Shown: piece by piece, positions 29,246 through 64,000 of the stretch
Numbering within the stretch: the first letter of the stretch is position 1
How the letters are laid out: each line of letters starts with the position of its first letter
The notes under the pieces: model-generated
Seen by the model: only the letters and a program-made list of their open reading frames with translations
The model's database searches: none
Told to the model about the DNA's origin: nothing
Position numbers and translations under genes: made by a program
NCBI GenBank assembly: GCA_945883775.1
Contig: CAMCYG010000002.1
Location: forward strand, 3,512-67,511
Source: Victivallis vadensis
GTDB lineage: Bacteria; Verrucomicrobiota; Kiritimatiellia; UBA8416; CAMCYG01
Reading direction: 5' to 3'
Length of the DNA stretch: 64,000 nucleotides

Positions 29246-29269
29246 TTGGGCTATCGGCTATATTAATCA

Positions 29270-29398
29270 CGTCTTCAGGAACGGGTGAGCAGAAATTGCA
29301 AATCCCGACCGGCGGTAAAGCCCGCGACTCCCTGAGTAACCAGGGACTGATTCCGGTGGAATTCCGGGGCCGACAGTAAAGTCTGGATGGAAGAAGGC
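29270..29398 (+). ncRNA. FMN riboswitch aptamer (RFN element)
   Basis: Conserved RFN blocks are present: AAATCCCGACCGGCGGTAAAGCCCGCGAC, GGTGGAATTCCGG, GCCGACAGTAAAGTCTGGATGGAAGAAGG. The P1 strands are TCTTC and GAAGA. It sits directly upstream of ribBA. Confidence 0.9.
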
Positions 29399-29418
29399 AT
29401 TGTCTGGCTTGTACTTAT

Positions 29419-29452
29419 AAGCCCGGGAACCTTTTTCCCGGGCTTTTTCTTT
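29419..29452 (+). terminator. riboswitch expression-platform terminator (attenuator)
   Basis: A GCCCGGGA/TCCCGGGC hairpin is followed by TTTTTCTTT, 22 nt before the ribBA start. Confidence 0.75.
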
Positions 29453-29474
29453 GAACAAAATCAGGAGCTGGAGT

Positions 29475-30668
29475 ATGTTTGATAAAATTGAAGATGTCAT
29501 TTCTGCCTATAAAAAAGGCCAGATTATCGTTGTCACCGATGACGAAAATCGTGAGAACGAAGGCGATCTGATAATTGCCGCAGAGAAAGCCACTCCCAAG
29601 GCGCTCAATTTCATGATCACACACGGCAAGGGACTTGTTTGCGTAGCAATGACTTCTGAACAGCTCCAGAAACTAAACATATCAAGAATGAAGCCGAAGA
29701 ATGACGGAGATCCCTTCAAGACTGCTTTCATGGAATCTGTCGACGCGGCACACGGCATCTCCACAGGTATAAGCGCTTATGACAGAGCGAAGACCGTTCA
29801 TGCTCTCATCAACCCCAAAGGCAAGGCCAGTGACGTTGTCGCACCAGGACATCTTTTTCCGCTTGAGGCGGTACAGGGTGGGGTATTGAAGAGGGCTGGT
29901 CACACAGAGGCAGCAGTGGATCTTGCCAAGCTCGCTAAACTCAGCCCGGCAGGAGTAATTTGCGAGATAATTAAGCCTGACGGTATGATGGCCAGGCTCA
30001 CTGAACTTCGGAAATTTGCCACCAGACATGGACTAAAAATGGCAAGCATTGCAGACCTTATAGCATTTAGACGAAAGACAGAAAAACATATTAGGCTTGT
30101 CGAAAGTGCAGACCTGCCCACCAGCCACGGAATGTTCAAATTGCACCTTTATACTTCTGATCTCGATAACAAAGAACATATCGCGCTAGTGAAAGGGTCT
30201 ATTAAACAAACTGACCCTATATTGGTACGGGTGCATAGCGAGTGCTTTACTGGTGACGTATTAGGTTCCTTACGCTGCGATTGCGGGTGCCAACTTACTC
30301 AGGCCTTAAAGATGATTGCTTCCCAGAAGAGCGGGATATTGCTGTATATGAGACAAGAGGGCAGGGGGATTGGCCTCACAAACAAGATACATGCATATGC
30401 GCTGCAGGATAAGGGAATGGATACGGTTGAAGCCAATGTGAAGCTTGGATTTGCGCCAGATTTGAGGGAGTATGGTGTCGGAGCCCAGATACTCTACGAT
30501 TTGGGCGTCAGAAAGATCAGGCTAATGACTAATAATCCAAGAAAGATCGTCGGACTTGAAGGATACGGTATGAAAATAGTGCGCAGACTGCCAATAGTAT
30601 GCACGCCCACTAAGCATAATCAGCATTACTTAGAAACAAAGAAACAAAAAATGGGGCATTTGCTGTAA
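29475..30668 (+). CDS. ribBA: bifunctional 3,4-dihydroxy-2-butanone-4-phosphate synthase / GTP cyclohydrolase II
   Basis: RibB motifs ([21 protein letters not shown]) and RibA motifs ([18 protein letters not shown]) are present. An AGGAG Shine-Dalgarno lies 7 nt before the ATG at 29475; the track ORF starts at an upstream TTG. Confidence 0.9.
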
Positions 30669-34355: not shown

Positions 34356-34746
34356 AGTGTGATATTTATCGGTGGAGGGATTGGTCGCTCCGGCTTGCCG
34401 GAGAGGAAAGTCCGGACTCCACAGGGCAGGATGTCCCCGGTTGACCGGGGAGGCTTTCTGGCAATCGGAAAGTACGGATAGTGCCACAGAAAACAGACCG
34501 CCCCGAGAGCAATCGAAGGGTAAGGGTGAAAAGGTGGTGTAAGAGACCACCGGGTCATCAGTGATGATGGTCGCAAGGCAAACCCCTCCGGAGCAAGATC
34601 GAATAGGAAACTTGAGGTGGCCCGCCTCTGGCAGATACGTTAAATCGTGCTGTCGAAGTTTCGGGTAGATCGCAATAGATAAATGACCGACACAGTAAAA
34701 TGTGAACAGAATCCGGCTTATGGTCTCTGCTGATAAATATCACATC
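34356..34746 (+). ncRNA. rnpB: RNase P RNA (bacterial type A)
   Basis: Universally conserved blocks are present: GGAAAGTCCGGACTCCACAGGGCA (P4 5' strand), AGGGTGAAAAGGTGGTGTAAGAGACCACC (P10.1/P11), and ACAGAATCCGGCTTA (P4 3' strand). The 13-bp P1 helix is formed by TGTGATATTTATC (34358-34370) and GATAAATATCACA (34732-34744). The element starts 2 nt after the stop of the upstream gene. Confidence 0.9.
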
Positions 34747-34749
34747 CTT

Positions 34750-35646
34750 TTGAAATACGGCCCGGTATCCGCACTCGCTATAGCTCTGTCACTTACAGGT
34801 ATTATTTTATGGGAGTACGGCCTTATAGGCAGAACATGTCAGGATAATGGATTCTGGCCGGATACAGCCCAAGGAGCCAAGGCGATTACAGTCAAATCAC
34901 AGGACTGGGACAATGCTGTCAAACCTGCTTCACAAAATAGCCAATTGGCAAAACAAGACACTATTGCAGCGGCACCAGTAGTCACTAGATATAGACTTGC
35001 TGGCACATTCTTTGCTTTGGACGAGGCTGGTACAAATGAGATTAGGAAGGCCATCCTGGACGATTCCGCAGCCTCAAATCAACTTATCGTGACCGAAAGC
35101 CAGTCAATTGATGACATAGTCATAAGTAGGGTTTTTAAAGACCATATAATCATCCTGCGAGGACAACAAAAGGAGGAGCTCTGGCTAACGTTTAATCTGA
35201 ATCCTTCAACAGCCAAGAATCCTATTTTGTCCAGTCAATCTGCAGAAACTGCTAAAAACGGGACCAACGCACTATCAAGATTTGGGGAGAAAATGATAGG
35301 GGAGAACCGCTGGATTTTTGACAGAAAGCTCGTCCTGGACTATTACAATGAGTTACGCGACAACCCAGATAGACTTGTCGCAGTTTTTGACTCATTGAAG
35401 CCCATATATGGAGATGGGAACAAGATTACCGGGTACCGCGTGGGAATCGAAGGAGAAGCCGAATTCTTCAAGGCAGTAGGCTTTAAGGAAGGTGACGTTG
35501 TTAGATCAGTTAACTCACTGCCGATGACCAATAGACGCCGAGCAGAGTATTTCATAAGTGAATTTGTCAAGGACAGGGCCAATGCTTTTGTCATCGCTGT
35601 CGAACGAGACGGCCGTAAGGATAAGCTAATATATCAAGTTAGGTAG
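34750..35646 (+). CDS. hypothetical membrane-anchored protein with a C-terminal PDZ/GspC-like segment
   Basis: The reading frame is open from 34702, but the ATGs at 34702 and 34720 lie inside the rnpB 3' end. The first start candidate after rnpB is a TTG at 34750 (LKYGPVSALAIALSLTGIILW is then a TM helix). The C-terminal part (YRVGIEGEAEFFKAVGFKEGDVVRSVNSL) resembles PDZ-like domains of secretion-system GspC/PilP-type proteins. The start is uncertain. Confidence 0.55.
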   Translation: MKYGPVSALAIALSLTGIILWEYGLIGRTCQDNGFWPDTAQGAKAITVKSQDWDNAVKPASQNSQLAKQDTIAAAPVVTRYRLAGTFFALDEAGTNEIRKAILDDSAASNQLIVTESQSIDDIVISRVFKDHIIILRGQQKEELWLTFNLNPSTAKNPILSSQSAETAKNGTNALSRFGEKMIGENRWIFDRKLVLDYYNELRDNPDRLVAVFDSLKPIYGDGNKITGYRVGIEGEAEFFKAVGFKEGDVVRSVNSLPMTNRRRAEYFISEFVKDRANAFVIAVERDGRKDKLIYQVR

Positions 35647-36906: not shown

Positions 36907-36919
36907 CCTGCCCTTTCTT

Positions 36920-38740
36920 CTAATCAGATGAATCCGACTTAAGGACAGCTACGAATGCTTTTTGAGGAACATTTACGCTCCCGAACTGTTTCATCCGTTT
37001 TTTGCCTTCTTTCTGCTTCTCGAGAACCTTCTTCTTCCTTGTGATATCACCGCCATAAAGTTTAGCCGTGACATCCTTTCTAAATGACTTGATGGTTTCT
37101 CGCGCTATTATGGTCTTGTTGATGGCCGCCTGTACAGGAATTTGGAACATATGCGCGGGAATACAATCTTTGAGGATCTTGCATATCTGTCGGCCCTTGT
37201 AAACAGCCTTATCCTCATGAACAAGGACGGAAAATGCGTCGATAACTTCGCTATTCAGCAGAATATCCAGCTTAATGATATTGCTGCGTTTATAGCCCGA
37301 ATACTCATAGTCCATTGACGCATATCCACGACTCACGCTTTTGAGCATGTCATGAAAATCAGTAAGGATCTCATTCAGCGGCATAGTGCTGGTAAGCATT
37401 ACCCGCTTGGTGTCAATCGAATCTGTCTTTGTCACCTCGCCCCGCCTGTCCATGATCATTTTCATTATGTCGCCAATATGCTCATTAAGGCATATTATGA
37501 AACTAGTTATCAGTGGCTCTTCTATATAGTCGATTCTACCCATGTCGGGCAGATTAACAGGATTGTCGATCTCCAAGGTCGTACCATCCTTTAAATATAC
37601 TTTATATATAACTGACGGATGGGTGCCTATTATATCAATATCGAATTCCCTGTGCAGACGTTCCTGCACGATCTCCATGTGCAGCAGCCCGAGGAATCCG
37701 CACCTAAACCCAAAACCCAAAGCCACTGACGACTCAGGGTGATGAGTGAAAGCACTGTCATTCAAGCACAGCTTCTCTATACTGTGCACGAACTTCTCAT
37801 ATTCGGCAGTGTTAACTGGATAAAGCCCGCTAAACACCATGGGCTTGACCTCCTTGAAACCATGCAGCGGTTTTTCGGCTCTGTTATTAACACATGTTAT
37901 GGTATCGCCAATAAGTATCTCTTTGGGCTCTTTTATGGTTGCAACCAGATAACCCACCTGTCCAGGATAAAGTGCGTCGACCGGCTTTTGCTTAGGACAA
38001 AATATCCCCACCTCTTTGAGTTCTGACTTGGTCCCCTTCTGCATCAGAATGATTTTGTCACCTGCCTTCAATATGCCATCCACCACCCTCACAAATGAAA
38101 CAGCTCCGCGATATTCGTCATATACCGAATCGAATACCAGTGCCCGAACAGGCGCATCCACCGCGCTTTCTTTGGGCGGCGGAATCCTCTTTATGACAGA
38201 CTCCAAAAGATCTTGTACGCCTAAACCAGATTTGGCACTGACAAGAATCCCGTTCTCCATGCTTATCGCCAGTATGTCTTCAATCTGCTTCTTCACTGCA
38301 TCTATGTCGACATTGGGAAGATCAACCTTATTGATGACAGGTATTATCTCAAGTCCGCGGTCGGCCGCGAGGTATACATTGGCCACGGTCTGTGCCTCGA
38401 CACCCTGCCCTGCATCAACGACAAGTACCGCGCCCTCACAGGCCGCCATACTCCTTGAGACCTCGTACGTGAAATCGACATGGCCCGGGGTGTCGATGAG
38501 ATTCAACTGATAGTTTTCACCATCTCTGGCGGTATAATACATGGTCACTGGATGGCATTTGATCGTTATTCCTCTTTCCCGCTCAAGATCCATTGCATCG
38601 AGGACTTGCGCCTTCATCTGTCGCTCTTCTATCGTGTTTGTCAACTGCAGGAATCTGTCTGCAAGGGTCGACTTACCATGGTCGACATGAGCGATGATGC
38701 AGAAATTACGTATATTCTTAATAGGGACACTGCTTATCAT
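36920..38740 (-). CDS. lepA: elongation factor 4 (translational GTPase LepA)
   Basis: GTPase motifs IIAHVDHGKSTL, DTPGH and NKVD are present. The 606-aa length and EF-G-like C-terminus fit LepA. Confidence 0.95.
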   Translation of the reverse strand: MISSVPIKNIRNFCIIAHVDHGKSTLADRFLQLTNTIEERQMKAQVLDAMDLERERGITIKCHPVTMYYTARDGENYQLNLIDTPGHVDFTYEVSRSMAACEGAVLVVDAGQGVEAQTVANVYLAADRGLEIIPVINKVDLPNVDIDAVKKQIEDILAISMENGILVSAKSGLGVQDLLESVIKRIPPPKESAVDAPVRALVFDSVYDEYRGAVSFVRVVDGILKAGDKIILMQKGTKSELKEVGIFCPKQKPVDALYPGQVGYLVATIKEPKEILIGDTITCVNNRAEKPLHGFKEVKPMVFSGLYPVNTAEYEKFVHSIEKLCLNDSAFTHHPESSVALGFGFRCGFLGLLHMEIVQERLHREFDIDIIGTHPSVIYKVYLKDGTTLEIDNPVNLPDMGRIDYIEEPLITSFIICLNEHIGDIMKMIMDRRGEVTKTDSIDTKRVMLTSTMPLNEILTDFHDMLKSVSRGYASMDYEYSGYKRSNIIKLDILLNSEVIDAFSVLVHEDKAVYKGRQICKILKDCIPAHMFQIPVQAAINKTIIARETIKSFRKDVTAKLYGGDITRKKKVLEKQKEGKKRMKQFGSVNVPQKAFVAVLKSDSSD

Positions 38741-49758: not shown

Positions 49759-51462
49759 ATGTTTTGGAGCAAGACTCTTATACCGACGTTGCGAGATGAT
49801 CCTGGAGAAGCAGAGATACCAAGTCACAAGTTAATGCTGAGGGCTGGATTGTTAAGAAAGCTCTCCAGTGGTCTTTACACATTTCTACCTCTTGGTTTCA
49901 AGGCTCTCAAGAAGGTAGAGCTGATCGTTCGTGAGGAAATGGATAAAGCTGGTGCAATGGAAGTGCTTATGCCGGCACTACAGCCCAGAGAGATATGGGA
50001 AACCTCCGATCGATACAAGACCATGGGCGCCTCAATGTTCAGACTAAAGGACCGACAGCAGCGCGATATGGTGTTGGGGCCCACGCATGAAGAAGTAATA
50101 ACGGAACTAGTCTCTCATGAGCTTAATTCTTATAAACAGCTCCCGAAGACTTTCTATCAGATCCAGACAAAGTTCAGGGACGAAATACGGCCTAGATTCG
50201 GACTGATGAGAGCCAAAGAATTCATCATGAAGGACGCTTACAGCTTTGACATCGACATTAATGCAGCGGATGCAAGTTATAAGGCCATGTACGATGCTTA
50301 TGTCAGGATATTTGAGCGATGTGGCCTGAGGACTAAGGTAGTTGAAGCAGATACCGGCGCCATAGGTGGAAAGTGGTCGCATGAGTTCATGGTTCTAGCC
50401 GATACTGGCGAAGATGGGATTGTTGAGTGCACAAAATGCGAATATGCCGCAAATCTGGAAAGAGCTGAACGAGCGATTCCATCCCCAATCTACTTCCCTG
50501 ATTCAGAAAAGGCAATAGAAGAGGTTGCAACACCGGGAATGAAGATTGTTGATGAAGTGAGCGGATTTTTCAAATGTGACCCCAAGCGTATAATAAAGAC
50601 TATTATTTACTTAATCGACGGCAATCCTGCAGCAGTATGCGTGTCCAGCGATAGAGACATCAACGAGCACAAGCTGGCAAGAATACTCGAAGCTCAGACC
50701 GTAGTGCTGGCAGATGCCGGAACCATTCTCAAATCTACATCGGCCGAAGTTGGTTACGCCGGACCGGTAGGCCTAAAAATCCCAGTTTATGCAGATCTGG
50801 GACTCAGGGACTGCAAAGGCATGATTTCTGGCGCGAACAAGAACGATACACATCTTATCAACGTCTGCGCTGGGCGTGATTTCCAACCTGCTCAATTTAT
50901 CGACATCGGCACGGTCAAGGAGAACGACCTCTGTCCGCGCTGCAGTGAGCAACTAAGGGAAAAGCGAGGCATAGAGGTCGGCCATGTGTTCAAACTAGGC
51001 ACCAAATACAGCGAGAAGTTTAACGCCATATACCTTGATGCACAGGGACAGAAAAACACAATAGTCATGGGTTGCTATGGAATCGGGGTAACCAGGACAC
51101 TACAATCCATTATAGAACAGTCGTTCGACGAGAATGGCATAATATGGCCTTTATCTGTAGCGCCATACCAAGTTGTCATCGATGTCCTTGATCCAAAGGT
51201 CGAGAAATGCATGTCGGTGGGGCTATCCCTGATGAACGATCTCGAGAAAAAAGGTATTGATGTCATTCTGGACGATAGGGATGAGAGGCCAGGGGTAAAG
51301 TTCAAGGACGCTGATTTGGTAGGATTTCCCATAAGGGTTGTAGTGGGAGCACGGAACATTGACGCAGGCAAGATCGAGATTAAGCTACGCAAAGAGAAGA
51401 AGGCTGATTTGGTCGATGTCGTCAATGCCGTAGAAACGATATACAACATCTGCAAAACATAA
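49759..51462 (+). CDS. proS: proline--tRNA ligase (bacterial type with editing domain)
   Basis: Class II aaRS motifs and the ProRS N-terminus (LIPTLRDDPGEAEIPSHKLMLRAG) are present. The 567-aa length implies an inserted editing domain. Confidence 0.9.
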   Translation: MFWSKTLIPTLRDDPGEAEIPSHKLMLRAGLLRKLSSGLYTFLPLGFKALKKVELIVREEMDKAGAMEVLMPALQPREIWETSDRYKTMGASMFRLKDRQQRDMVLGPTHEEVITELVSHELNSYKQLPKTFYQIQTKFRDEIRPRFGLMRAKEFIMKDAYSFDIDINAADASYKAMYDAYVRIFERCGLRTKVVEADTGAIGGKWSHEFMVLADTGEDGIVECTKCEYAANLERAERAIPSPIYFPDSEKAIEEVATPGMKIVDEVSGFFKCDPKRIIKTIIYLIDGNPAAVCVSSDRDINEHKLARILEAQTVVLADAGTILKSTSAEVGYAGPVGLKIPVYADLGLRDCKGMISGANKNDTHLINVCAGRDFQPAQFIDIGTVKENDLCPRCSEQLREKRGIEVGHVFKLGTKYSEKFNAIYLDAQGQKNTIVMGCYGIGVTRTLQSIIEQSFDENGIIWPLSVAPYQVVIDVLDPKVEKCMSVGLSLMNDLEKKGIDVILDDRDERPGVKFKDADLVGFPIRVVVGARNIDAGKIEIKLRKEKKADLVDVVNAVETIYNICKT

Positions 51463-51479
51463 GATAAAAGGAGGTTGTC

Positions 51480-51761
51480 ATGACAAAGCGGGATCTGGTA
51501 GTGAGAATATCGAATGAGACCGGTTTGGTCCAGCAGGACGTGTATGCAATCATACAGAAAACTCTGGATTATATCACGGAAGCTATGGTCAAGGGTGAGA
51601 ACGTTGAATTCAGGGATTTCGGTGTGTTTGAGATATGCACCAGAAAGCCCAGGATTGGACGCAACCCGAACAAGCCTGAAAACACGGTCACTATACCGGA
51701 ACGAAAAGTTGTAAAGTTCAAAGCAGGCAAGAAGATGAAGGCCGCTGTACTGGTCAGCTGA
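51480..51761 (+). CDS. HU/IHF-family nucleoid DNA-binding protein
   Basis: The 93-aa protein has the beta-arm motif GRNPNKPENTVTIPERKVVKFKAGK, and AAAGGAGG lies upstream of the ATG. Confidence 0.85.
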   Translation: MTKRDLVVRISNETGLVQQDVYAIIQKTLDYITEAMVKGENVEFRDFGVFEICTRKPRIGRNPNKPENTVTIPERKVVKFKAGKKMKAAVLVS

Positions 51762-51776
51762 TAGCAAGCAAGACAG

Positions 51777-53039
51777 ATGAGTTCAGATTTAACACTTGCG
51801 CCCCCTCGGGGTATGAGGGATTTCTATCCCGAGGATATGGCTATACGTAACCATATCTTCCAGGTTTGGCATAATTCAGCCCGCCTTCACGGATTTCTAA
51901 ACTACGACTCCTGCGTTGTAGAAAACCTGTCCCTCCTTAAAAGAAAAGCCGGTGAAGAAATCACCGAGCAGATATACAGTTTCATTGATAAGAGCAATCG
52001 CGAGCTTGCACTGCGCCCTGAGATGACACCTACTCTGGCCCGGATGCTTATTGCCAGACAGAACTCAATGCAATTCCCGGCAAAATGGTACACAATCGCA
52101 CAGTGCTTCAGGTACGAGCGCATGTCGAAAGGCCGGAAACGGGAGCATTTCCAATGGAACCTCGATATTGCAGGCGAACCGTCGACCTCCGCTGAAGCAG
52201 AAATAATAGCTGCCGCGATTACAGCAATGAGAGCTCTAGGCCTCACGGCCGGCGATATAAAAGTAAGAATTAATAGTCGCGCTTTGATGGCCGAGCTCCT
52301 TATCAAGCATGGAATACAGCAGGAACATACCGCATCCGTCTTCATGGCTATAGACAAGTACGGGAAAATTCCTGAGCCAGAGATTGTTAAGATGCTGACA
52401 GCGGCATGTCTTTCTGAAGAAGGCATCAAGGCAGTTTTTGAGATCATGAAGATCAATAGCATTGACGCCGCTAAGTCTGCAGCCGGTGATGAATCACCTG
52501 CCATGCGGGCTATTATTGAAATATGGGGAGCCATAAGCACATACGGACTAACTGATTTCATTGAATTCGATATGTCAGTCGTCCGGGGCCTTGGTTACTA
52601 CACAGGGATTGTCTTTGAATGTTACGACATCAAGAAAGAGCACCGCGCCATCTTTGGCGGGGGCCGCTACGACAACCTGATATCCGATTTAGGCGGCAAT
52701 AAGATCCCATGCGTCGGCATGGGGTTTGGTGATGTCGTTATAGCTGAGTTACTTGCAGAAAAGGGACTGTTACCGACAGGTTCAGCCCCTGCTCTTGTGG
52801 CTGTCGGATGCATGGACAAGCCTTCCATGTCTTTGGCGATCGAGATCGCGGTCATGTTCAGGAATAATGGGGAATCCGTTGATCTGGCACTGGCACCTGA
52901 AAAACCCAAGAATTTCTTCTCGCGTTGCAGTTCTGCCGGCTTCGATCGGGCTGTCTATATCGGACCCGATGATGTCAAATCCCGTAAGATCAGAATCAAA
53001 GACCTCAAGACGCGACAGGAGACGGAGCTGTCTCTGTAG
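51777..53039 (+). CDS. hisS: histidine--tRNA ligase
   Basis: [12 protein letters not shown], class II motif 2 ([16 protein letters not shown]) and motif 3 (GGGRYDNL) are present. Confidence 0.9.
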
Positions 53040-54825
53040 GCAATATCTTCGGTTTTTCTGGAAGATTGATCTTGATGTGAAGTTCTCGCAGTTGCTTCAA
53101 CGTAACGTCGCCAGGAGCACCCATAAGAAGATCCTGTGCCTTCTGGTTCATTGGGAAAGCAATTACTTCCCTAATATTATCCACATTTGCCAATAGCATT
53201 ACTATTCTGTCGATGCCAGGGGCAATGCCACCGTGTGGCGGCGCACCCAGCTTAAAAGCGTTGATAAGCGCCGGGAACTTCCCGTCTACATCTTCCTGCT
53301 TATACCCGGCAAGATCAAATGCCTTGTACATGATTTCGGGCTTATGATTTCTGATTGCCCCGCTGCCGACCTCGCATCCATTACAGACAACATCATACTG
53401 AAAAGCCTTGATATCAACCGGATTCATCGTATTCAACGCCTCAATACCGCCCTGCGGCATTGAAAACGGATTATGAGAGAATATGACAGTCTGTGATTCC
53501 TCATCAAATTCGTACATCGGGAAGTCGACTATCCAGCAGAACCGATAGACATCTTTCTCGAGAATGTCCAGATCACGGCCCAGCTTTATACGTATATCGC
53601 CTGATACTCTATTCACCAGTTTGACGTTGTCGCACAGCAGGAACACCACATCCCCATCCTGTAAAGCGCATTGAGCGGCTATGCTAGCAAGCTCGTCCTT
53701 GGAAAGAAACTTGGCTATAGGGCCCTTTACCTCGCCATTCTCCCAAACAAGATAAGCCAAACCCTTGGCACCTAAAGAAATCGCATACTCAACCAGTTTA
53801 TCAAAGAAACTACGGGACTTGGACGCAATCTGTCTGACCGGAATTGCTCTTACCACGGCCCCCTTCTCCACCAGCGATTTAAAAGCCTTGAAGCCGGACG
53901 TACGGAATATTTCCGTAGCATCAGACATGATTATCGGGTTGCGCAAATCTGGCTTATCAGAGCCGTACATCAGCATTGAATCTGAATACTTAATCCGCTT
54001 GAATGGTATTCCATCAACCTTCCAAGAGCCGAATTTTGTAAATATCTGATGCAAAACAGATTCAACCACCTTAAAAATGTCATCTGGTTCGACAAACGAC
54101 ATCTCGATATCAAGCTGACTGTGCTCACCCGGCGACCTGTCCGCCCTCGCATCTTCATCCCGGAAACAGGATGCAATTTGGAAATATTTATCGAATCCGG
54201 CTAGCATGAGTAATTGCTTAAACTGCTGGGGTGATTGCGGAAGAGCATAGAACTTGCCGGGGTGTACCCTGCTCGGCACAAGATAATCACGTGCACCCTC
54301 TGGTGAACTACTGGTTAATATAGGCGTCTGGAACTCATTAAAGCCGTTCTGATCTATCATTATCTTCCTGATTTCCGAGATCACACGGGTACGCAACATG
54401 ATGTTGCTATGCAATTTCTCTCTACGCAGATCGAGGAACCTGTATTTCAAGCGCAACTCCTCAGAAGTATCATCATCGCCGGATACTTGGAATGGTATTT
54501 GTTCAGCCACACTATCAAAAATGATTTCCTGGGCCACAATCTCTATCTCACCGGTCTTGACTTCAGGGTTTATTGTGTCAGGGGTCCTGACTTCCACCAT
54601 ACCCGTAACGGTTATTACGGATTCAAGCTTAAGTTTTTGGCATTCCTCGAAATAGGATTGATCGGGGCGTATGACAATCTGCGTCATGCCGTAATGATCA
54701 CGCAGATCAAAGAAAAGAAGACTGCCGTGATCCCGTTTCCTGAAGACCCAGCCGGATAGTTTCACCAGTTTGCCAGCGTCAGCCGTGCGTAATTCGTCGC
54801 AGTTATGTGTTCTGTATTTATGCAT
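53005..54825 (-). CDS. aspS: aspartate--tRNA ligase
   Basis: An N-terminal OB-fold anticodon-binding domain ([19 protein letters not shown]), class II motifs and the C-terminal [14 protein letters not shown]...VIAFP block are present. Its 3' end overlaps the convergent hisS by 35 nt. Confidence 0.9.
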
Positions 54826-55026: not shown

Positions 55027-55980
55027 TCAGGGCGTTATGGTAACTTTAGCACCTAACGGAAGTATATCGAACACCTCTTCAACATCGGCATTATGCATTC
55101 TTATACAGCCGGCACTGTCTGCTGTTCCTATTGAGGCGTCGTTCCATGTGCCATGAATCCCATAGCCTTTAACTGACGGGGTGCTGCCAGTAGCCTTTAT
55201 GCTCATCCATCTGGTTCCAAGTATGTTCTCTTTATCACCAAACGGCAGCATCTTGTCACCTCTCCACCAAGGTGGCTCAACTATCTTATCATTGACGGCA
55301 AATGTACCTTCAGGAGTCTTTCCCATCTTGCCGGTACAGACCCTGTAGCGCTTGCAAAACAAGCCGTTTATATATAACACCATATCGTTGGCAGATTTAC
55401 TGCAGACCAGACTGAATACTGCTTTTGTCAAAACCAGAGTATCGCCAGCATGCAGAACCTTTGCCTCAGAAAAACCATTTGCTCTGCGAATAAGATTTAC
55501 TGTAGTGCCATGACTTTTGGCAATCTTTTCCAGACTGTCGCCCGGCCTCACAGAATATGACATCTTCTCAGAGGTCATAATTGGCGAAAATAGTACGGCT
55601 ATCGAGAGCTTTCCCATTTCGAATTCAGCCATTTCAACAATTCGGGAATCATTGGTAGCCGTTATTATGGAGCGATATTTCTGAAAAGCCTCTTCATGTT
55701 TATTGGCAGTTTCAAGATCCTTGGCCTCTTTCAATATAGCCAAGCCTGCTGTCTGTGCTGTTAGATTTGATGAAGAATTATCAACTGTGACCGGCACACT
55801 GTTGGTTAACGCCTGCGCAGGCGGCTCGCCCTGAGTCGAAGGCACATCACGCCGATCGCGTATGATCCTGTATGCTTGATAAGATCCAGCACAGACCAGG
55901 ATAACGATTAAAAGCAATACCCAAGGCTTCCTGCTGGGGGATTTAAAATCATCCTGAGACACGGGATTATCAAGAAACAT
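55027..55980 (-). CDS. L,D-transpeptidase (YkuD domain) with a LysM peptidoglycan-binding domain
   Basis: A LysM domain (YSVRPGDSLEKIAKSHGTTVNLIRRANG) and YkuD catalytic motifs (HGT...SAGCIRM) are present. The N-terminus has a TM/signal anchor. Confidence 0.85.
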   Translation of the reverse strand: MFLDNPVSQDDFKSPSRKPWVLLLIVILVCAGSYQAYRIIRDRRDVPSTQGEPPAQALTNSVPVTVDNSSSNLTAQTAGLAILKEAKDLETANKHEEAFQKYRSIITATNDSRIVEMAEFEMGKLSIAVLFSPIMTSEKMSYSVRPGDSLEKIAKSHGTTVNLIRRANGFSEAKVLHAGDTLVLTKAVFSLVCSKSANDMVLYINGLFCKRYRVCTGKMGKTPEGTFAVNDKIVEPPWWRGDKMLPFGDKENILGTRWMSIKATGSTPSVKGYGIHGTWNDASIGTADSAGCIRMHNADVEEVFDILPLGAKVTITP

Positions 55981-57043: not shown

Positions 57044-60000
57044 CTACTGATTGGCAATACCATATGTTATTCGATAATAGACTGTTGAAGGTGGTGCTGG
57101 CGCGATATTTACGTCATCCACTACCGCTGCATTACCACCATTCACTCCGTCACTTGTATATTGGTCAATTGGAACCCAAGTGATAAGATCCGAACTGGTC
57201 TCGACTGTGAAACGTATTGGCACCGCGCCAAGATTGGAATAAGTCATCCAGTTGACATTGATATTCCCGCTACCGTCAATTGTAAGCCCGGATATAGCAA
57301 TCTGGCTGACAGGCCCAGCAACATTCGGATTACTTCCCGCAGCAATCTCTGCAAGATCATTTGCACCACCAATTGAAATATCACCATCAGTGTCGACTGA
57401 ATTATATGATGTCCCAAAAGCATACTCCACATAATTCAGTATTCCATCGCCATCCGTGTCTGCAGAACCCGATGTCGCCAACGAACCAGCATAATTCTGA
57501 TATTCCCACCCATCAGGCACGTTGTCATTATCAGTATCACGATCGCTTATCACTATGTTTACACCGGTCACGCTCTCGGTGGTCAATAAATTCACCACCC
57601 TGAGCGAGTACTCAATGGCATACTCATACCTGATTCCCTCTGAAACATCACGAGCAACACCTAAAGGCTCCCATGGATCGGCAATGCTATTCCCGTTCAC
57701 ATCGATAAAAGCCTGCACATAATATATATCATGCTGAAGGCCATTGATAGTATAAGCACCAGCGGTGCTGAGTTTCTTCATGCCATCCACACCCGTGCGC
57801 AGATCAGGTTTGTTATAGGCCATAACATATATATTACCAGTTGCTTTTCCGAAATATGAAACTGTGCCAGACAAAGCTGGCGCGCCCACATACTGCTGAG
57901 GTGGATTAGTAATCGCCAGCGAGAAACTGCCATATCCCGACCAGCTGCCATAGGAAGCGTTATTATGCGGCCTTATACGCCACTGATAATTTCCATTGGT
58001 AAACGAACCGCCACTTCCAAACAATCCATATGTTGTAGTCGCGTCAACAGGCATAGACTGCTTGAATAAACCTGTCTGGAATCTGTAGGGCGCCGCAAAC
58101 ATTTTTGTGTAATTGACTCCGTTGGCTGAAGTGATCTCTATCTCATATCTCGGCTCGTTTGTGGCGCTGGACCATTCAAATATGTGTTTCTGGGATGTAA
58201 TCATATCGCCATTGATCGGACGGACAAGTACCGGGGTCCCAGAAGAAGACATCGGGACAAAGAAGCGATCCTTCTGCAGCATAGTTCCGTTCTCATAATC
58301 AAATATCTGCCACTCGTAACTGCCCTGAGGAAGACCATAATAATAGTTATTGCCGTCCAAATATGTGGCAGTCTGATAGTCCGGCTTAAAGAAGTAGTTC
58401 CTATCCCTTAGCGTCTTCTGCAATATCACAGGACTGTTGTCAATATCCAATCTGGTCAAACGCACAAACACGTTTGTAGGCGTGGCTGAAGCATTGACCC
58501 AAGTAAATGCTTTGAACCATGGTATAGCGGACTCTTCTGTCAGATAATAATTCAAGTTGGCAGTATCCCCATATACACAGTCCAAATCAGCCACGAAATA
58601 CGGGTCTCCCGGTTCATACGTATCTGCTGTCGAATCCCAGTTGGCATCGGAGGTGTTTTCTTCCACACCTTCTTTCAGATACGAAAGGAAATAAGTCTTA
58701 TTGTTCTCATCCGGCCAGGCCGAAGCTGTTATATGCCATGCCCTTGCTCTGGCATCATTCGTACTAGTGCCTACATCACGCAGATTATCATCATATGTCG
58801 AGACGCTGAATGTGTTGACCCAGAGAGAACCATTGAGATTCCCTTCATAATAGGCGCTCCCATTAATCATATTCTCAGGATAGTCAGCGACTGTTGGATT
58901 CCCTCCGTTCAAATATTCCCGCAGATTATCTGACCCGTCGTTATCAGGGTCCTCATTAGCATCATATCTCAATCTGCTCAAGATAGGTGCAAACTGAGCT
59001 TCCCACCAGTCAGGCATACCGTCCCCATCGTCGAACTTTGCGCCATAGGGCACGCCGGAATTACCGTAACTGTCAAAATAGTCATTCTTGCCGTCTCCGT
59101 CAGTATCAGCGCGCATCGGATCCAGATATATCCCCCCGAACGAGTCGACAAATGCCATATACTCATACAGATTGACCAAGCCGTCCTTATCAGGATCGCC
59201 CCAGGCACCGTTGCTGCCGGTTGCATCATTCGCATCGAGTCCGGCCGCAATTTCCCAATCATCCGGCAGGCCATCACCGTCAGTATCAAACGGTTCAGTT
59301 CCCTTCCCTAGATTATCCCACAACTCAATATCTTCATCCGCTACAGCCTGCCGCAACGGAAGCAAATCATCCATCACCGCTGCGGTATACCGCGAATATA
59401 TCAAATCGATCAGATCATAAGCAAAGGGATGGTCTTCGTACCCGGATTGAATAGAAGTTCTATAGGTTAATCCGTACGGATTACTGGCATTCGGGAACTC
59501 GTTTGTTATGTTAATATTAGCAGTGACTCTATTTGTCGTTGTCACCCCATTGGTTCCGGTAGTGGTGGTTGTCGTCGTTATTGTCCCGATAGGAACAACC
59601 CACGGCCAATTTATGGACAGCGAGTCAAGCACAGGATTTGTCAGCGGCATATGCGATGCGGTGTTATCTATCCATGGAACATAGTTATAATCATTATAAA
59701 CAGTCGACCGGTCCGGAGCCGTTCTCCAGAACTCATTACCGGCATAACTGCCGTCATTCGGCCTACCGCTGACAAGATTGAAGCCATCCGGTGAGACCGA
59801 CGAGTGGTCCGGATCAGGCAGATCATCGAAAGAATAATGGTACAACAGCATCGGAGCATAATTATCCAGAATATCACCCTGCGCATTGAGCGTAACGATA
59901 TCCGTACGTTTCATGCGCCTCATCATATTATCCTGAATGATCTGTGCACTGACAATGCCATCCCAGATACGTACCTCATCTATCCATCCTTTAAAGAACG

Positions 60001-63000
60001 AACTTAAACCCGGATTCCCAAGTGCTGGCCCGGCATTAGGGCCTGTCCAAACGTTAGCGCCGTTTATCATGCCCATCGGGCTCGAATCAGCTGCGCCCAC
60101 CACAATCGGTCCGCGCATCACATATCCAAAATTTGCCTGATTCGTAGTGATCATCTGCCCACCACCGACCCAACCATTGCAGGGGATTTCGGCTGATGGC
60201 GTCGACTGCTGAAGCTCACCATTGATGTAAAGCTCCAGTCTCTTTGTCAAACCATTATAGGAAGCAGCCAGATGCACCCACGCATTGGGAGCCAATACCC
60301 CACCTACAGCCCGTGCATTGACATTCAGCGTGTCAAAACCGGCTCCTGTGTATTCTGTGAACGGCACACCTGTCGCGTCTATACCAAGCCTGAAATTGTA
60401 ACGCAGACTTGTAGGCCAGCCCATCGGATTCCCGTTTTCGACCAGCAAAGGACGTTCCACTATTATCTGATCCGCACCTGAAACAGGATTTTCAGGCCTG
60501 ACCCATGCCTCAACCATCCAGTTTCTCAACACATCCTGCTCCGAAGGGAAATACGCCGCGACGGTCCTGGCCGCAGCATTGCCGTTAAGATATAGCGCCC
60601 TTCTCTTTAGCGGGAGCTCCGCGTCAAGCGGATCTGTATAGCCCGGGCTTGCCGAATCAGTTATTTCCGCCCGGTCTGCAATATTGTCATTATCAGTATC
60701 ATACCCCTCATTGACCTCAAAATCGAACATATAACTTGGCGCAAACCCATACGCCAAGTCCACATCATCCCAGTACCACGGTAAAGTCCCAGTCGAGTAA
60801 TACAGATTCACAAAGCTCTGCTGGTAACTGGTATCGGTCACCCATATCGGCGTCGGATCGGTATGGTATCTCTGCGGATTTATCGAACCCGGCTGTAATG
60901 ACTCGTCTATATTGGGCAAGCCATCCTGATCTGAATCACTGAACTGATGCCCTATAACGGCCGGTGCCAGTCTGACGTCGAACGTAGGCCAATCGCTAAA
61001 GGAGAATGGCACATTAAGGCCCCAACCCACGATCCAAACCCCTTTATAGATATCATACCCGCCAAGTATAGGATTCAGGCAATGGAACACCTCATAATAG
61101 TCGTCCATGTTGTCCATATCTGAGTCGTCATTGACCGGTGCCGAGCCAGCGAATTCCTCTAAAGGATAGTGAAAATCAGGAAGATCAGCGAGAAGAGCAG
61201 GTGTTGTCATGGCAAAAACATAAGGAATCGTACCCAATGACGCCTGCCAGAGATCCGCATCACCATAATAATGCCAATCCCACTCATAGGGGGTACCAGT
61301 CGCGGAATTGATAGGATCATATCCGAAAAGCCCCAATCCCGCCGCCCATGAGCCATACTGCCATGACGGCACAAAACATGTCAGATATTCCTGATAATTC
61401 TGAAGTCCATCCTGATCGTAATCATATCGCAAGGGAGCTTTTTGAAAATAGTTACTATTTGTGTAGTTCCCATTTGCAAACAAATTTGTACCCGAGTCAT
61501 CAAAAGTCCCATCCATACCGTTACGACCGGAAGCGCTGTTGAGATTTGTCGTCGCTGTATTCTGGTAGACAAACTCCCAATTATCAGGTATGTGGTCGCC
61601 GTCTGTGTCAACGCTAGTGGGATTCAACCCACCGCCCTCATAACAATGCATCGCGCGCGCGCCGCCGGGATAAATCTGTGAAAATTCTGCGCCATCCATG
61701 ACCTGGTCCCCATCAGTGTCGAGATTATATGGATCTGTCGGAAAGTGTTTATTCAACCAGGTTTCATATTCGGTTGGAATGCTGTTTGTAACAGGAACCC
61801 AAGCAGTGCCATCAAAGATCGAATTTGTTGACTCACTCATGTAAGCATTAAAGAACTCACCAGCGTTATCAAGCCCGTCCCCGTCCACGTCAGAGCCACC
61901 AGGCCCTACATATAACTCCCAGCCGTCAAACGCTCCATCGCCGTCAGTATCCGGATTACGAGGATGAGTGAGGTTAAGAAATTCGTCTAAAGTCGTATAG
62001 TCTCTCGTGTTCTCATTGTGTGTCGGCGTAAGACTCCACATATACTCCCAAGGCTCATAAGTTGCATTTGCAACTGCGGTCCTGGGATCAAAACCATACG
62101 CGACATACACAGCATTATGCTCATTACCAATACCGTCATCAGCCATAAAGTCTCTATCGGGATTCGACGCAGCGTCTGCGGTTGGCGGGGTTGTTACTAG
62201 TAGCCACGGATCGAAACCGAAGCTGATCTCCCACTCATCGGGCAAACCGTCAGCATCTATATCTACGTAATTCGGATTAGATGTCGCACCTCGCTGGGCA
62301 CGTACGCTTACACTATACTCATCCAAATTAACATAAGGCAGAGGTGGGGTTCCAGCCTGAGCAGTAATATCATCATAGTAAAAGTCGCCATCAGGATTAC
62401 CATTCGGTCCATTGTCTATATCTACATCGCCATCATCCAATGGCGAAGGATGAGCACCCGCAGCCAAACCTGCCATTTGCGATGCGATCTCAAAGCTATG
62501 CTCCCAACCATCCGGCATTCCATCAATATCAGTGTCAGCAAGCAACGGATCTGTTGTCCCAAATGTCCCGGCTGCATAAGGCGGGATATTAGTTCCAACA
62601 AGTATTCTCTGATATTCCTCAAGATTAGTGAAGGGAGTGACCGTTTTTCCGCTGAATGTAACATTCTCAGCCAAGGCCAGATAGTCGAAATCGCCGTCCG
62701 GATTGCCCGTCGCGCCCATATCGCCCTTGTTGTCGAGCGGGTCAAGAGTGTAGGTGATCTCCCATTCATCAGGCATCCCGTCCCCATCGGTATCAGGATC
62801 ATTGGGATCAGTTGAAAGCAACATGATTACCAGGAACTGTCCCAAAGGAATATTTTCTACGCCGGCATTTTCGACAAACTGCTGATATTCCCTTAAATTA
62901 GTGAAGTTGCCGACAGTAAAACCTGTTAATTTATCAAACAACAGATCGCCGTCCGGGTTTCCAGAAGCGCCATCAACTCCCGCCGCGCTAGTTGGATTCA

Positions 63001-64000
63001 GCCCGAAATACGCTTCCCAGCCGTCGTACATTCCATCGGCATCGGTATCAGGATCATTCGGTCTCGTTGACGGTTGTCCATTATAACCATTGAACTCCTG
63101 CCTATTCGTCAATCCGTCCTCGTCAGGATCTATTCCGGCATCAGCTACATCTTTTGGATCAAGCAAATTATCGATTTCATACCCATCGTCCATTCCGTCA
63201 CCGTCGGTATCAGTGTTCTGCGGATTAGTTGCATCTGTATCCAAACCGATGCCATCTGGACGCTGACCATCCTTCCCCAAATACTCAAGGAAGTTGGACA
63301 GCCCATCAACATCAGCATCAGTAAATTGTCCATGCAGCCCAGCGCTCGTTGCTGGGGAAAGCCCATATAAAGCCTCCCACGCATCATTCATTTGATCACC
63401 ATCTGTATCGTAAGCTTTGGGATTTGTCTGCGTGAACCTGTTCGTAGAATAAATACCGCCAGTATTGCCGTTCAGCGGGCCAAGAAACTCTTCAATGTTG
63501 GAAAGGCCGTCAGCATCTGCATCTCCGGCTGCGCCATCCTGTCCATCCGCACTCAAGGGATTCAAACCGTATTTAACTTCAAAGTCATCCCGCATTCCAT
63601 CATCATCGGTGTCAGATTTCTGCGGATCAGTTGCGTCCGACGTGCCGATACCATTTCCGATCGGAACGGCGGTATCACGACCCCTATACTCCTGCATATT
63701 GGTCAGGTTATCAGCGTCGACATTACCCGTTTGTCCGTCGTTCCCGGTGGAAACCATAGGATTAAGCCCATAATTCGCCTCCCAGCCGTCATTCATTCCA
63801 TCGCCGTCCGAATCGGGATTGTCGCGATCCGTACGCAAGAAATTCGCAACAAGATTGATTCCAGATGGGTTTCCGTTAATTGGACCATTCCATTCCTGAA
63901 GATTTGTTAGTCCGTCGCCATCTGAATCTAACGCACCATCAGCTCCGGGATAAGGACCGGTTGTATCAATAAAGTTGGCAGTAACATTAATCTGATTACC
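57044..64000 (-). CDS. giant secreted/surface protein (>2,300 aa; N-terminus beyond the window) with ~20 thrombospondin-type-3-like calcium-binding repeats and a LamG/concanavalin-A-like domain
   Basis: A single open frame runs from 57044 to the window end. The frame continues upstream of the TTG the track used at 63838 (…DSDGDGLTNLQEWNGPINGNP… reads through with no stop). DxDxDG[ML]xDxWE motifs recur, each followed by G-x-[DN]-P spacers and [LF][ST]N[LF]xE[YF] motifs. A LamG-like jelly-roll block is present (ALYLNGNAAARTVAAYFPS...NWMVEAWVRPE...WVHLAASYNGLTKRLELYINGEL). The C-terminal ~450 aa are beta-rich and Ig/FN3-like. Confidence 0.85.
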   Translation of the reverse strand, partial: GNQINVTANFIDTTGPYPGADGALDSDGDGLTNLQEWNGPINGNPSGINLVANFLRTDRDNPDSDGDGMNDGWEANYGLNPMVSTGNDGQTGNVDADNLTNMQEYRGRDTAVPIGNGIGTSDATDPQKSDTDDDGMRDDFEVKYGLNPLSADGQDGAAGDADADGLSNIEEFLGPLNGNTGGIYSTNRFTQTNPKAYDTDGDQMNDAWEALYGLSPATSAGLHGQFTDADVDGLSNFLEYLGKDGQRPDGIGLDTDATNPQNTDTDGDGMDDGYEIDNLLDPKDVADAGIDPDEDGLTNRQEFNGYNGQPSTRPNDPDTDADGMYDGWEAYFGLNPTSAAGVDGASGNPDGDLLFDKLTGFTVGNFTNLREYQQFVENAGVENIPLGQFLVIMLLSTDPNDPDTDGDGMPDEWEITYTLDPLDNKGDMGATGNPDGDFDYLALAENVTFSGKTVTPFTNLEEYQRILVGTNIPPYAAGTFGTTDPLLADTDIDGMPDGWEHSFEIASQMAGLAAGAHPSPLDDGDVDIDNGPNGNPDGDFYYDDITAQAGTPPLPYVNLDEYSVSVRAQRGATSNPNYVDIDADGLPDEWEISFGFDPWLLVTTPPTADAASNPDRDFMADDGIGNEHNAVYVAYGFDPRTAVANATYEPWEYMWSLTPTHNENTRDYTTLDEFLNLTHPRNPDTDGDGAFDGWELYVGPGGSDVDGDGLDNAGEFFNAYMSESTNSIFDGTAWVPVTNSIPTEYETWLNKHFPTDPYNLDTDGDQVMDGAEFSQIYPGGARAMHCYEGGGLNPTSVDTDGDHIPDNWEFVYQNTATTNLNSASGRNGMDGTFDDSGTNLFANGNYTNSNYFQKAPLRYDYDQDGLQNYQEYLTCFVPSWQYGSWAAGLGLFGYDPINSATGTPYEWDWHYYGDADLWQASLGTIPYVFAMTTPALLADLPDFHYPLEEFAGSAPVNDDSDMDNMDDYYEVFHCLNPILGGYDIYKGVWIVGWGLNVPFSFSDWPTFDVRLAPAVIGHQFSDSDQDGLPNIDESLQPGSINPQRYHTDPTPIWVTDTSYQQSFVNLYYSTGTLPWYWDDVDLAYGFAPSYMFDFEVNEGYDTDNDNIADRAEITDSASPGYTDPLDAELPLKRRALYLNGNAAARTVAAYFPSEQDVLRNWMVEAWVRPENPVSGADQIIVERPLLVENGNPMGWPTSLRYNFRLGIDATGVPFTEYTGAGFDTLNVNARAVGGVLAPNAWVHLAASYNGLTKRLELYINGELQQSTPSAEIPCNGWVGGGQMITTNQANFGYVMRGPIVVGAADSSPMGMINGANVWTGPNAGPALGNPGLSSFFKGWIDEVRIWDGIVSAQIIQDNMMRRMKRTDIVTLNAQGDILDNYAPMLLYHYSFDDLPDPDHSSVSPDGFNLVSGRPNDGSYAGNEFWRTAPDRSTVYNDYNYVPWIDNTASHMPLTNPVLDSLSINWPWVVPIGTITTTTTTTGTNGVTTTNRVTANINITNEFPNASNPYGLTYRTSIQSGYEDHPFAYDLIDLIYSRYTAAVMDDLLPLRQAVADEDIELWDNLGKGTEPFDTDGDGLPDDWEIAAGLDANDATGSNGAWGDPDKDGLVNLYEYMAFVDSFGGIYLDPMRADTDGDGKNDYFDSYGNSGVPYGAKFDDGDGMPDWWEAQFAPILSRLRYDANEDPDNDGSDNLREYLNGGNPTVADYPENMINGSAYYEGNLNGSLWVNTFSVSTYDDNLRDVGTSTNDARARAWHITASAWPDENNKTYFLSYLKEGVEENTSDANWDSTADTYEPGDPYFVADLDCVYGDTANLNYYLTEESAIPWFKAFTWVNASATPTNVFVRLTRLDIDNSPVILQKTLRDRNYFFKPDYQTATYLDGNNYYYGLPQGSYEWQIFDYENGTMLQKDRFFVPMSSSGTPVLVRPINGDMITSQKHIFEWSSATNEPRYEIEITSANGVNYTKMFAAPYRFQTGLFKQSMPVDATTTYGLFGSGGSFTNGNYQWRIRPHNNASYGSWSGYGSFSLAITNPPQQYVGAPALSGTVSYFGKATGNIYVMAYNKPDLRTGVDGMKKLSTAGAYTINGLQHDIYYVQAFIDVNGNSIADPWEPLGVARDVSEGIRYEYAIEYSLRVVNLLTTESVTGVNIVISDRDTDNDNVPDGWEYQNYAGSLATSGSADTDGDGILNYVEYAFGTSYNSVDTDGDISIGGANDLAEIAAGSNPNVAGPVSQIAISGLTIDGSGNINVNWMTYSNLGAVPIRFTVETSSDLITWVPIDQYTSDGVNGGNAAVVDDVNIAPAPPSTVYYRITYGIANQ

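Follow-up and report, generated by a model that had tools for sequence, protein, structure and literature searches.

The last 7 kb of the window, i.e. the whole 64,000-nt stretch of contig CAMCYG010000002.1 that was analysed here, are occupied on the minus strand by most of a gene for a giant secreted protein with calcium-type loops and a LamG module. Just downstream of it lie genes for a putative lipoprotein and for an L,D-transpeptidase. According to the original prediction, which had been made from the sequence of the window, a single open reading frame (ORF) of about 7 kb runs past the window end. This is indeed the case: translation of the frame 57044-64000 yields 2,318 codons with a first stop (TAA) at 57044-57046, and the frame stays open up to the window edge at position 64000. 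The mechanical ORF call (57044..63838, 2,264 aa, TTG start) begins at TTG 63838, which is merely the first start codon inside the window.

An exact look-up with the downstream 330-aa protein led to an 83.8-kb metagenome contig of the European Nucleotide Archive (ENA; ERZ27280308 k141_255051, here called L001), which reaches beyond position 64000 and shows 99.9% identity to the window; the two differ at 5 positions within the giant gene (6,957 nt) and at another 5 in the 11,037 nt downstream of it. The complete gene is found at L001:2115-9956 and encodes 2,613 aa; an NCBI copy has identical length and falls into the same 90% cluster. Absent from the window are thus only residues 1-295, comprising the start codon, the signal peptide and three InlB-B repeats as seen on L001. 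Full-length numbering is used throughout (window residue = full residue minus 295). The N-terminus (MCKVIKFYLL ... STANA/ANY) is a Sec signal peptide of the signal peptidase I type, which in the L001 protein reads MCKVIKFYLLAILLAILFVSTANA up to the cleavage site, with A next, and which is the sole hydrophobic segment of the protein. The mature protein has a mass of 282 kDa, a pI of 4.05 and 10.1% Asp, with a count of 6 Cys in 2,613 aa. Since a 99.9%-identical contig carries the whole 2,613-aa gene with its Sec signal peptide, and hence no upstream frameshift or stop of the kind that the original prediction had considered, the gene is intact and not a pseudogene. In view of the signal peptide, export across the inner membrane is therefore not mysterious.

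Architecture of the giant protein

From the N-terminus the protein is built of the signal peptide, three InlB-B repeats, calcium loops, the LamG core, a second set of loops, about four beta-sandwiches, a third set of loops and a C-terminal beta-sandwich (Table 1).

Table 1. Features of the giant gene and of the two genes downstream of it, with window positions and the residues or evidence concerned
Feature	Position	Strand	Residues and evidence
Giant gene, in-window part	57044..64000	-	aa 296-2613 of 2,613 aa, plus stop codon
Regular calcium-loop array, five A/B pairs	62966..63928	-	aa 320-640; motif map, TSP3_bac
Irregular loop array with inserts, including degenerate NPDGDF-type loops	61157..62965	-	aa 641-1243; aligned to homologs
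Pre-LamG conserved block	60620..61156	-	aa 1244-1422; invariant columns in 24-41 homologs
LamG / concanavalin-A-like jelly roll	59807..60619	-	aa ~1423-1693; Pfam, AlphaFold2, Foldseek
Post-LamG conserved block with a Thr-rich stretch inside	59306..59806	-	aa 1694-1860; homolog alignment
Second calcium-loop cluster, 4-5 loops	58886..59305	-	aa 1861-2000; TSP3_bac 23.4 bits, just below cutoff
About four tandem Ig/FN3-like beta-sandwiches	57539..58528	-	aa 2120-2449; AlphaFold2, Foldseek
Third calcium-loop cluster, family-conserved DRDTDNDxxPDxWE at its start	57299..57538	-	aa 2450-2529; TSP3_bac 23.9 bits
C-terminal beta-sandwich ('FYRV' type), ~80 aa, end ...YYRITYGIANQ	57047..57298	-	AlphaFold2 pLDDT 80-91, alignment
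Putative lipoprotein, Ser/Thr/Gly-rich, 330 aa	56007..56999	-	starts 44 nt past the giant's stop codon
Membrane-anchored LysM + YkuD L,D-transpeptidase, catalytic SAGCIRM	55027..55980	-	Pfam YkuD 74.9 bits, LysM 45.9 bits

Residues 24-312, which lie outside the window on L001, form three immunoglobulin (Ig)-like repeats of ~95 aa, each with the end F..W.G...F, and match the Pfam model Flg_new_2 (PF18998, divergent InlB B-repeat) in two stretches with 36.2 bits (cutoff 23.6). They are followed at aa 320-1410 by an array of 12-residue acidic loops of the form DxDxDGxx[D/N]xxE. The pattern [DN]x[DN]x[DN]xxx[DNSGA]xx[EDS] matches 30 times in the full protein; the matches at aa 2080 and 2395, in the C-terminal part, are probably due to chance, and ~26-28 of the loops are credible as calcium-type loops. 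The core motif DxDxDG occurs 21 times, compared to 0.25 occurrences expected and a maximum of 3 in 1,000 shuffles, and none of the loops contains Cys. Two types of loops are found, type A (~15 copies; DxDxDG[ML]xDxWE, with D at position 9 followed by [WYF]E, and YGLNP usually next) and type B (11 copies; DxDxDGLxNxxE[YF], with N at position 9). They alternate regularly in the first five pairs only (aa 320-640) and irregularly afterwards. The original prediction had recognised the acidic loops as similar to thrombospondin type-3 (TSP3) repeats, which holds, but its count of about 20 WE modules has to be lowered to ~15, and the element [LF][ST]N[LF]xE[YF], which is present but had been taken for a spacer, is itself the second calcium loop. 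In line with this assignment, aa 315-700 scanned alone match the Pfam model TSP3_bac (PF18884) with 44.2 bits (cutoff 25); the homologs of the giant score 42-75 bits.

The next recognisable module is the LamG domain. Pfam Laminin_G_3 (PF13385) matches aa 1454-1566 with 47.8 bits (cutoff 27.6). An AlphaFold2 model of aa 1244-1860, based on 24 homologs, has a predicted template modelling score (pTM) of 0.72 and confidently shows a jelly roll at ~aa 1430-1685, with a predicted local distance difference test (pLDDT) score mostly between 80 and 97. Both this model and that of the tail (see below) were calculated from alignments of 24-25 rows, and the first 56-115 residues of each are unreliable; fragment ends are smeared in the global alignment. 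A Foldseek comparison of the module with the PDB retrieved the LG domain of PAPP-A, pentraxins, neurotoxin Hc-N, neurexin LNS and CBM40 domains with E-values of 1e-8 to 1e-6 over ~240 columns. The module is a generic lectin-type fold.

The jelly roll is embedded in two blocks which rank among the best-conserved parts of the family. No Pfam model matches either of them (aa 1244-1422 and 1694-1860) in segment scans. The block before the jelly roll is characterised by the motifs DxDxDxMDDYYExFHxLNP, YHTDPxPxWxTDxSY, FExNEGxDTDND and RRALYLxG, the one behind it by FDDLPDPDH, YVPWIxN, FPNxSNPY and DLLPLRxAxADEDI. Taken together, the core and its flanks comprise ~600 conserved residues, ~350 of them without a Pfam model. 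All core motifs of the family (DDYYExFHGLNP, YHTDPxPxW, RRALYLxG, FFxGWIDEVRIW, FDxLPDPDH, YVPWIxN and DLLPLxxAxAD) are present in the giant.

The C-terminal beta-sandwich domains of the original prediction are borne out by an AlphaFold2 model of aa 2000-2613, in which pLDDT values of 75-92 are reached from aa 2120 on. About four beta-sandwiches are seen at aa 2138-2447 and a separate one at aa 2531-2610; the last of the tandem sandwiches (YFGK...YYVQAFID.NGN) is weakly DUF2141-like. Foldseek matches of the tail comprise fibronectin type III (FN3) arrays, the macroglobulin (MG) domains of alpha-2-macroglobulin and the adhesin extender domains of 6xi3 and SiiE, with low TM-scores, which is what a chain of domains that is flexible would be expected to give. 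For the C-terminal domain neither Pfam nor NCBIfam holds a model; only sub-threshold DUF3999 and F5/8-type noise was obtained. Most relatives of the giant end in ...[FY][FY]R[VIL]xxx, and 55 of 120 matches share this end motif when a strict pattern is applied. The corresponding ~70-aa domain, ...W..G..Y.VQ.S.DL..W...RFYRV, is here called FYRV-type. A profile built from 22 C-termini was searched against 1.84 billion cluster representatives (E<=1e-3). Its best matches contain up to 37 tandem copies, and the end motif is terminal in 72 of the top 150. A role of the domain as dedicated sorting tag was considered and rejected, as it is an abundant repeat that occurs in tandem arrays and is often but not always terminal. 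On sequence grounds, its frequent last position would be compatible with an attachment role, which falls short of a demonstrated sorting signal.

As had been noted before, recognised sorting signals are missing. Motif and hydrophobicity scans of the giant revealed no LPXTG, no PEP-CTERM and no C-terminal hydrophobic segment, and the GGxGxD nonapeptide of RTX proteins occurs zero times in the whole protein. The models for the C-terminal domain (CTD) of type IX secretion system (T9SS) substrates (Por_Secre_tail / TIGR04183, and type B) matched neither the whole giant nor the 22 C-terminal domains at E<=1. Domain scans found no surface-layer homology (SLH) or other S-layer anchoring domain, and scans of the whole protein and of segments found no VWA domain and no protease or other catalytic module. 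Substrates of type II secretion carry no sequence tag.

Gene neighbourhood and protein family

The lipoprotein and transpeptidase genes stand where the original prediction had described an S/T/G-rich protein and a LysM-containing LD-transpeptidase. The transpeptidase gene begins 26 nt past the stop codon of the lipoprotein gene and is followed, after a gap of 201 nt and on the same strand, by the gene for aspartyl-tRNA synthetase (AspRS); no minus-strand terminator-like site was found among the giant, lipoprotein and transpeptidase genes. The 330-aa lipoprotein has no match in Pfam or NCBIfam. Its orthologs show 33-41% identity and an invariant GCEW after the signal peptide. Measured against the consensus [LVI][ASTVI][GAS]C, the lipobox is canonical in two orthologs (VAGC and VTGC) and atypical in the window copy (FPGC). 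The downstream proteins of 320-330 aa are a true ortholog set.

Upstream of the giant, L001:1-1961 carries the gene of a secreted coiled-coil protein of 147 aa and then that of a second giant, called with 2,151 aa, in which NHL repeats and TSP3 loops occur along with a C-terminal beta-sandwich resembling that of the first giant. Three homolog loci keep the order NHL giant, small protein, LamG giant, ~320-aa protein, the last of which is called as truncated 208 aa at the contig end in one of them; the NHL giants carry a Peptidase_M4 or Peptidase_S8 domain in two of the three cases. A genome scan seeded with the lipoprotein yielded 23 full-length loci, ~21 of them informative, all in metagenome-assembled genomes (MAGs) labelled Kiritimatiellia, Verrucomicrobiota, Victivallales, Lentisphaerales, PVC group (Planctomycetes-Verrucomicrobia-Chlamydiae), Spartobacteria, 'bacterium' or 'uncultured bacterium'. 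A LamG giant ends just upstream of the lipoprotein in 17 of the ~21 informative loci, and YkuD was found downstream of it in 10 of the loci retrieved. The conserved GCEW orthologs and their position directly after the giant in these 17 genomes lend support to the notion of a partner lipoprotein put forward in the original prediction.

Apart from the cassette, the central domain of the lipoprotein (residues ~80-170, ...FSGxL...INYxTGAxSVxF...; loci L028-L043) is also present in proteins of 630-660 aa that are encoded in Patescibacteria/Saccharibacteria MAGs. An Acidobacteria MAG contains it in a C25-peptidase protein of 1,374 aa, with a weak match to DUF2460.

A homolog search with the giant in 5.8 billion proteins gave 651 matches at E<=1e-10. 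The top homologs, from PVC metagenome genomes, have 2,500-4,500 aa and combine PF13385 with PF18884; many also contain PF18998, and often M10, C1, S8, VWA, PKD or beta-helix modules. In BLAST, the core is covered by 64-82 and the tail by 48-91 of the 119 listed homologs; at least 65 cluster representatives among these best 119 have the conserved core in common with the giant. Core identity to 41 homologs amounts to 33-52%, and the best non-self overall identity to 34-43%. At NCBI the proteins are named, e.g., 'LamG-like jellyroll fold domain-containing protein [Kiritimatiellia bacterium]', 'VWA domain-containing protein [Spartobacteria bacterium]' or 'C1 family peptidase [Verrucomicrobiota bacterium]'. 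Closest in build are LamG giants of Kiritimatiellia and Verrucomicrobiota (e.g. P0003, P0005, P0009, P0013, P0016 and P0028), which share the order of parts, the FYRV-type C-terminus and the same neighbours with the giant. Many relatives from these groups are 500-2,000 aa longer and possess extra LamG copies as well as M10, C1, S8, VWA, PKD or beta-helix modules, which the window giant lacks; in three mapped homologs the protease domain lies mid-protein, behind the LamG core and ahead of the beta-sandwich tail. The window giant is a near-minimal, non-catalytic scaffold version.

Literature searches (Kiritimatiellota, Pontiella) retrieved no characterisation of the family, only general papers on TSP3/CglD and on giant PVC proteins. 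The suggestion of an uncharacterised new family is therefore only half right: the family is experimentally unstudied, but databases already contain many of its members under generic names, its domain types are all known (for TSP3_bac, Laminin_G_3 and Flg_new_2 with Pfam models that the giant matches), and the domain combination is not novel.

The AspRS of the window shows at most 71% identity to anything else, with best named matches from Kiritimatiellae and 'Lentisphaerae RIFOXY' MAGs; in the syntenic loci it is 64-68% identical, except for L024 with 44%. The host is an uncultured PVC bacterium of Kiritimatiellia-like type. Otherwise the window, as far as examined, consists of housekeeping genes, i.e. 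aminoacyl-tRNA synthetases, aromatic amino-acid genes, ScpAB, LepA, signal peptidase I and XerD; LepA, signal peptidase I, a mannose-1-P guanylyltransferase and XerD were identified via PDB homologs, whereas exact look-ups with two further window proteins gave no match, probably owing to differently called start codons. Dedicated secretion-system genes are not among the annotated genes of the window.

Several further features were observed. A class A RNase P RNA (221 bits) is located at 34369-34737 (+). As its 3' end extends into the mechanical ORF 34702..35646, the true start of that ORF is probably further downstream. An FMN riboswitch (29267-29402 (+), 89 bits) lies just upstream of ORF 29451..30668. 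Three class II aminoacyl-tRNA synthetases, for proline (ProRS, +), histidine (HisRS, +) and aspartate (AspRS, -), are found side by side at 49759-54825, where the HisRS and AspRS frames as mechanically called overlap tail-to-tail by ~35 nt. At 3893-6873 (-) two PDZ_3 proteins adjoin, the second with a trypsin-like HtrA/DegP-type protease domain and the first with PDZ_3 only. LepA (EF4) at 35803-38740 (-) is followed by a signal peptidase I homolog with an unusual length of 367 aa, of which only the C-terminal part fits solved LepB structures.

Proposed role and alternative explanations

Taking the architecture and the neighbourhood into account, we lean towards the view that the giant is a cell-associated, non-catalytic surface or extracellular binding scaffold that is stiffened by calcium. 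Hereafter called the scaffold reading, it would work as follows. Sec export would carry the protein across the inner membrane; outside the cytoplasm the ~26-28 acidic loops would bind Ca2+ and stiffen the chain into an extended stalk, by analogy with TSP3/COMP-type loops and with CglD. The LamG module and the N-terminal Ig-like repeats would serve as ligand-binding, probably glycan-binding, ends, while the beta-sandwich tail would act as spacer and attachment end. In this way the protein would resemble other large, modular surface proteins that depend on calcium. The NHL-repeat giant encoded nearby may be its partner. As anchor in the outer membrane, the best candidate is the lipoprotein conserved downstream, and the LysM-YkuD enzyme may tie the lipoprotein or the local envelope to peptidoglycan. 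It is from synteny that we infer the lipoprotein anchoring and any role of the transpeptidase, and the label 'adhesin' of the original prediction likewise stays an inferred one.

A number of points weigh against the scaffold reading. Localisation, calcium binding, ligand binding and contact with the lipoprotein are all predicted properties of the giant. When the whole protein is scored, TSP3_bac stays below threshold (21-24 bits compared to a cutoff of 25), and AlphaFold2 confidence is low for the conserved LamG flanks. No outer-membrane secretion or anchoring signal was recognised in the giant, so that simple release is possible, and the FYRV profile matches 29,484 cluster representatives, which makes the C-terminal domain a common repeat and not a family-specific tag. 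Moreover, in 4 of the ~21 informative loci (L006, L012, L014 and L024) there is no giant in the sequence upstream of the lipoprotein, and two of them (L006 and L012) retain the order lipoprotein, LysM-YkuD, AspRS. The linkage between lipoprotein and giant is thus strong but not obligate, because the lipoprotein occurs in four genomes without an adjacent giant, and its linkage to the transpeptidase and AspRS is at least as stable. Functionally, the lipoprotein may belong to the transpeptidase rather than to the giant.

Instead of being bound to the cell, the giant could be released and capture substrates for a degradative (or predatory) complex outside the cell, in which it would, together with the NHL giant, bind glycoproteins or polysaccharides for breakdown. 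We regard this as unlikely, although several observations speak for it: in homologous loci, the giants located upstream have a Peptidase_M4 or Peptidase_S8 domain besides NHL repeats, members of the family itself carry M10, C1, S8, VWA or beta-helix modules, the giant has no anchoring signal that we could find, and this is how secreted PVC proteins of giant size that contain carbohydrate-binding and TSP3 modules have been interpreted (PMC12057145). However, the window giant has no catalytic domain, its own NHL neighbour was seen without its N-terminal 1,650 aa, and a cell-bound assembly agrees better with the giant's conserved position next to a lipoprotein and a peptidoglycan enzyme.

A structural role, in which the protein would form an S-layer-like, Ca2+-dependent lattice or coat held on the outer membrane by the lipoprotein, appears rather improbable. 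Such a role would suit the core-genome setting among housekeeping genes, the synteny preserved between genomes with AspRS identities of only 64-68%, and the very acidic, calcium-loop-rich composition of the giant. Its relatives, however, differ a great deal in length and in the enzyme modules inserted into them, unlike lattice-forming proteins, and an SLH or other S-layer anchoring domain was not found. The S-layer-like assembly of the original prediction receives no specific support.

Very improbable is an RTX-type giant adhesin of the LapA/SiiE/MpIBP kind that leaves the cell via a type I secretion system (T1SS). Size, acidity and calcium-binding type of the giant would agree with it, as would the fold of the Ig-like tandem, which fits extender domains (6xi3, 2yn5). 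Yet the protein has a cleavable N-terminal Sec signal peptide and not a single GGxGxD nonapeptide, and the neighbouring genes examined include no ABC transporter, membrane fusion protein (MFP) or TolC gene of a T1SS; at the level of defining motifs this explanation is effectively excluded. Hardly credible, finally, is a pseudogene or a collapsed or chimeric repeat region, even if misassembly is common in repeat-rich genes and the gene extends beyond the window, given that the ENA and NCBI assemblies both carry the unbroken 2,613-codon frame with 5 nt differences in 6,957 nt compared, that the giant is collinear with its homologs across core and tail, and that its repeats are diverged, not identical, in both DNA and protein.

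Going beyond the scaffold reading of the giant itself, one could speculate that the whole cassette (NHL giant, coiled-coil protein, LamG/TSP3 giant, GCEW lipoprotein and LysM-YkuD) is an undescribed surface apparatus of Kiritimatiellia type. The giants would then be calcium-stiffened display scaffolds with interchangeable protease or binding modules, anchored in a new manner in which the FYRV-type domain docks on the lipoprotein and the transpeptidase ties the lipoprotein to peptidoglycan. We put this forward as a doubtful possibility.

Among the anaerobes that degrade complex glycans, Kiritimatiellia and their relatives are important, and to our knowledge their cell surface is almost uncharted. 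If the proposed role is true, the family would be a main route by which they present binding or hydrolytic modules outside the cell, with a fixed scaffold, swappable modules and a lipoprotein and transpeptidase conserved alongside. The giant is built from known domain types and offers no direct handle on a long-standing question. It does expose an annotation gap, as the LamG flanks (~350 residues) and the very abundant FYRV-type domain have no curated model. The conserved cassette and these unmodelled conserved blocks are the parts that deserve attention.

Comparison with known systems

The signature domain of thrombospondins and COMP consists of a type-3 repeat 'wire' with acidic DxDxDGxxDxxD/E loops and a lectin-like C-terminal jelly roll. 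Acidic calcium loops beside a concanavalin-like beta-sandwich are thus common to these eukaryotic proteins and the giant, but true TSP3 repeats contain disulfide pairs, which the giant's repeats lack. Sequence searches against all PDB chains with the whole giant and with its loop array gave no match even at E<=10, and the thrombospondin C-terminal domain is not among the top 50 fold matches of the jelly roll, which include LG, pentraxin and CBM40 domains. By the tests run (PDB sequence, fold, Cys), the giant is not a thrombospondin homolog.

The best structural match of the LamG module is the N-terminal LG domain of PAPP-A (pappalysin; 8d8o_B, E 9e-9). Some relatives of the giant, like PAPP-A, pair LamG with a metzincin (M10) domain; the giant itself has no protease, and with 15-17% identity over ~240 aligned columns common descent beyond the fold is unsupported. 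The RTX adhesins (SiiE, LapA/MpIBP) share with the giant the large size, tandem Ig-like extenders (folds 6xi3, 2yn5 and 2yn3) and the calcium dependence that is predicted for it. They differ from it as T1SS substrates that have C-terminal RTX repeats and no Sec signal, whereas the giant has the Sec signal and no RTX motif.

Among bacterial proteins, NCBIfam searches with the array gave far-sub-threshold, repeat-only matches to CglD and MtsD. The best of them was CglD of Myxococcus xanthus (NCBIfam NF033765), a cell-surface protein that also has a run of DxDxDG loops; with 78 bits in 6 stretches, confined to the repeat region, compared to a family cutoff of 400, the giant is not a CglD equivalog. 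CglD is a 1,130-aa lipoprotein with a VWA domain and its MIDAS (an adhesion site that depends on metal ions) as well as Cys-rich EGF-like modules, and is part of the Glt gliding machine; the giant, in contrast, lacks a VWA domain, contains only 6 Cys and combines a type I signal peptide with a LamG core. Nevertheless, CglD provides the closest tested bacterial case, as its DxDxDG COMP-like region goes along with a Ca2+-dependent function (bioRxiv 10.1101/2023.10.19.562135). Very long secreted proteins of Omnitrophota and other PVC-related bacteria share the TSP3, LamG and NHL modules PF18884, PF13385 and PF01436 (bioRxiv 10.64898/2026.06.07.730766; PMC12057145). Those proteins either are tandem-repeat scaffolds that can reach tens of thousands of residues or contain dockerins, whereas the giant described here, with 2.6 kaa, combines single LamG and FYRV domains in a fixed, family-conserved order.

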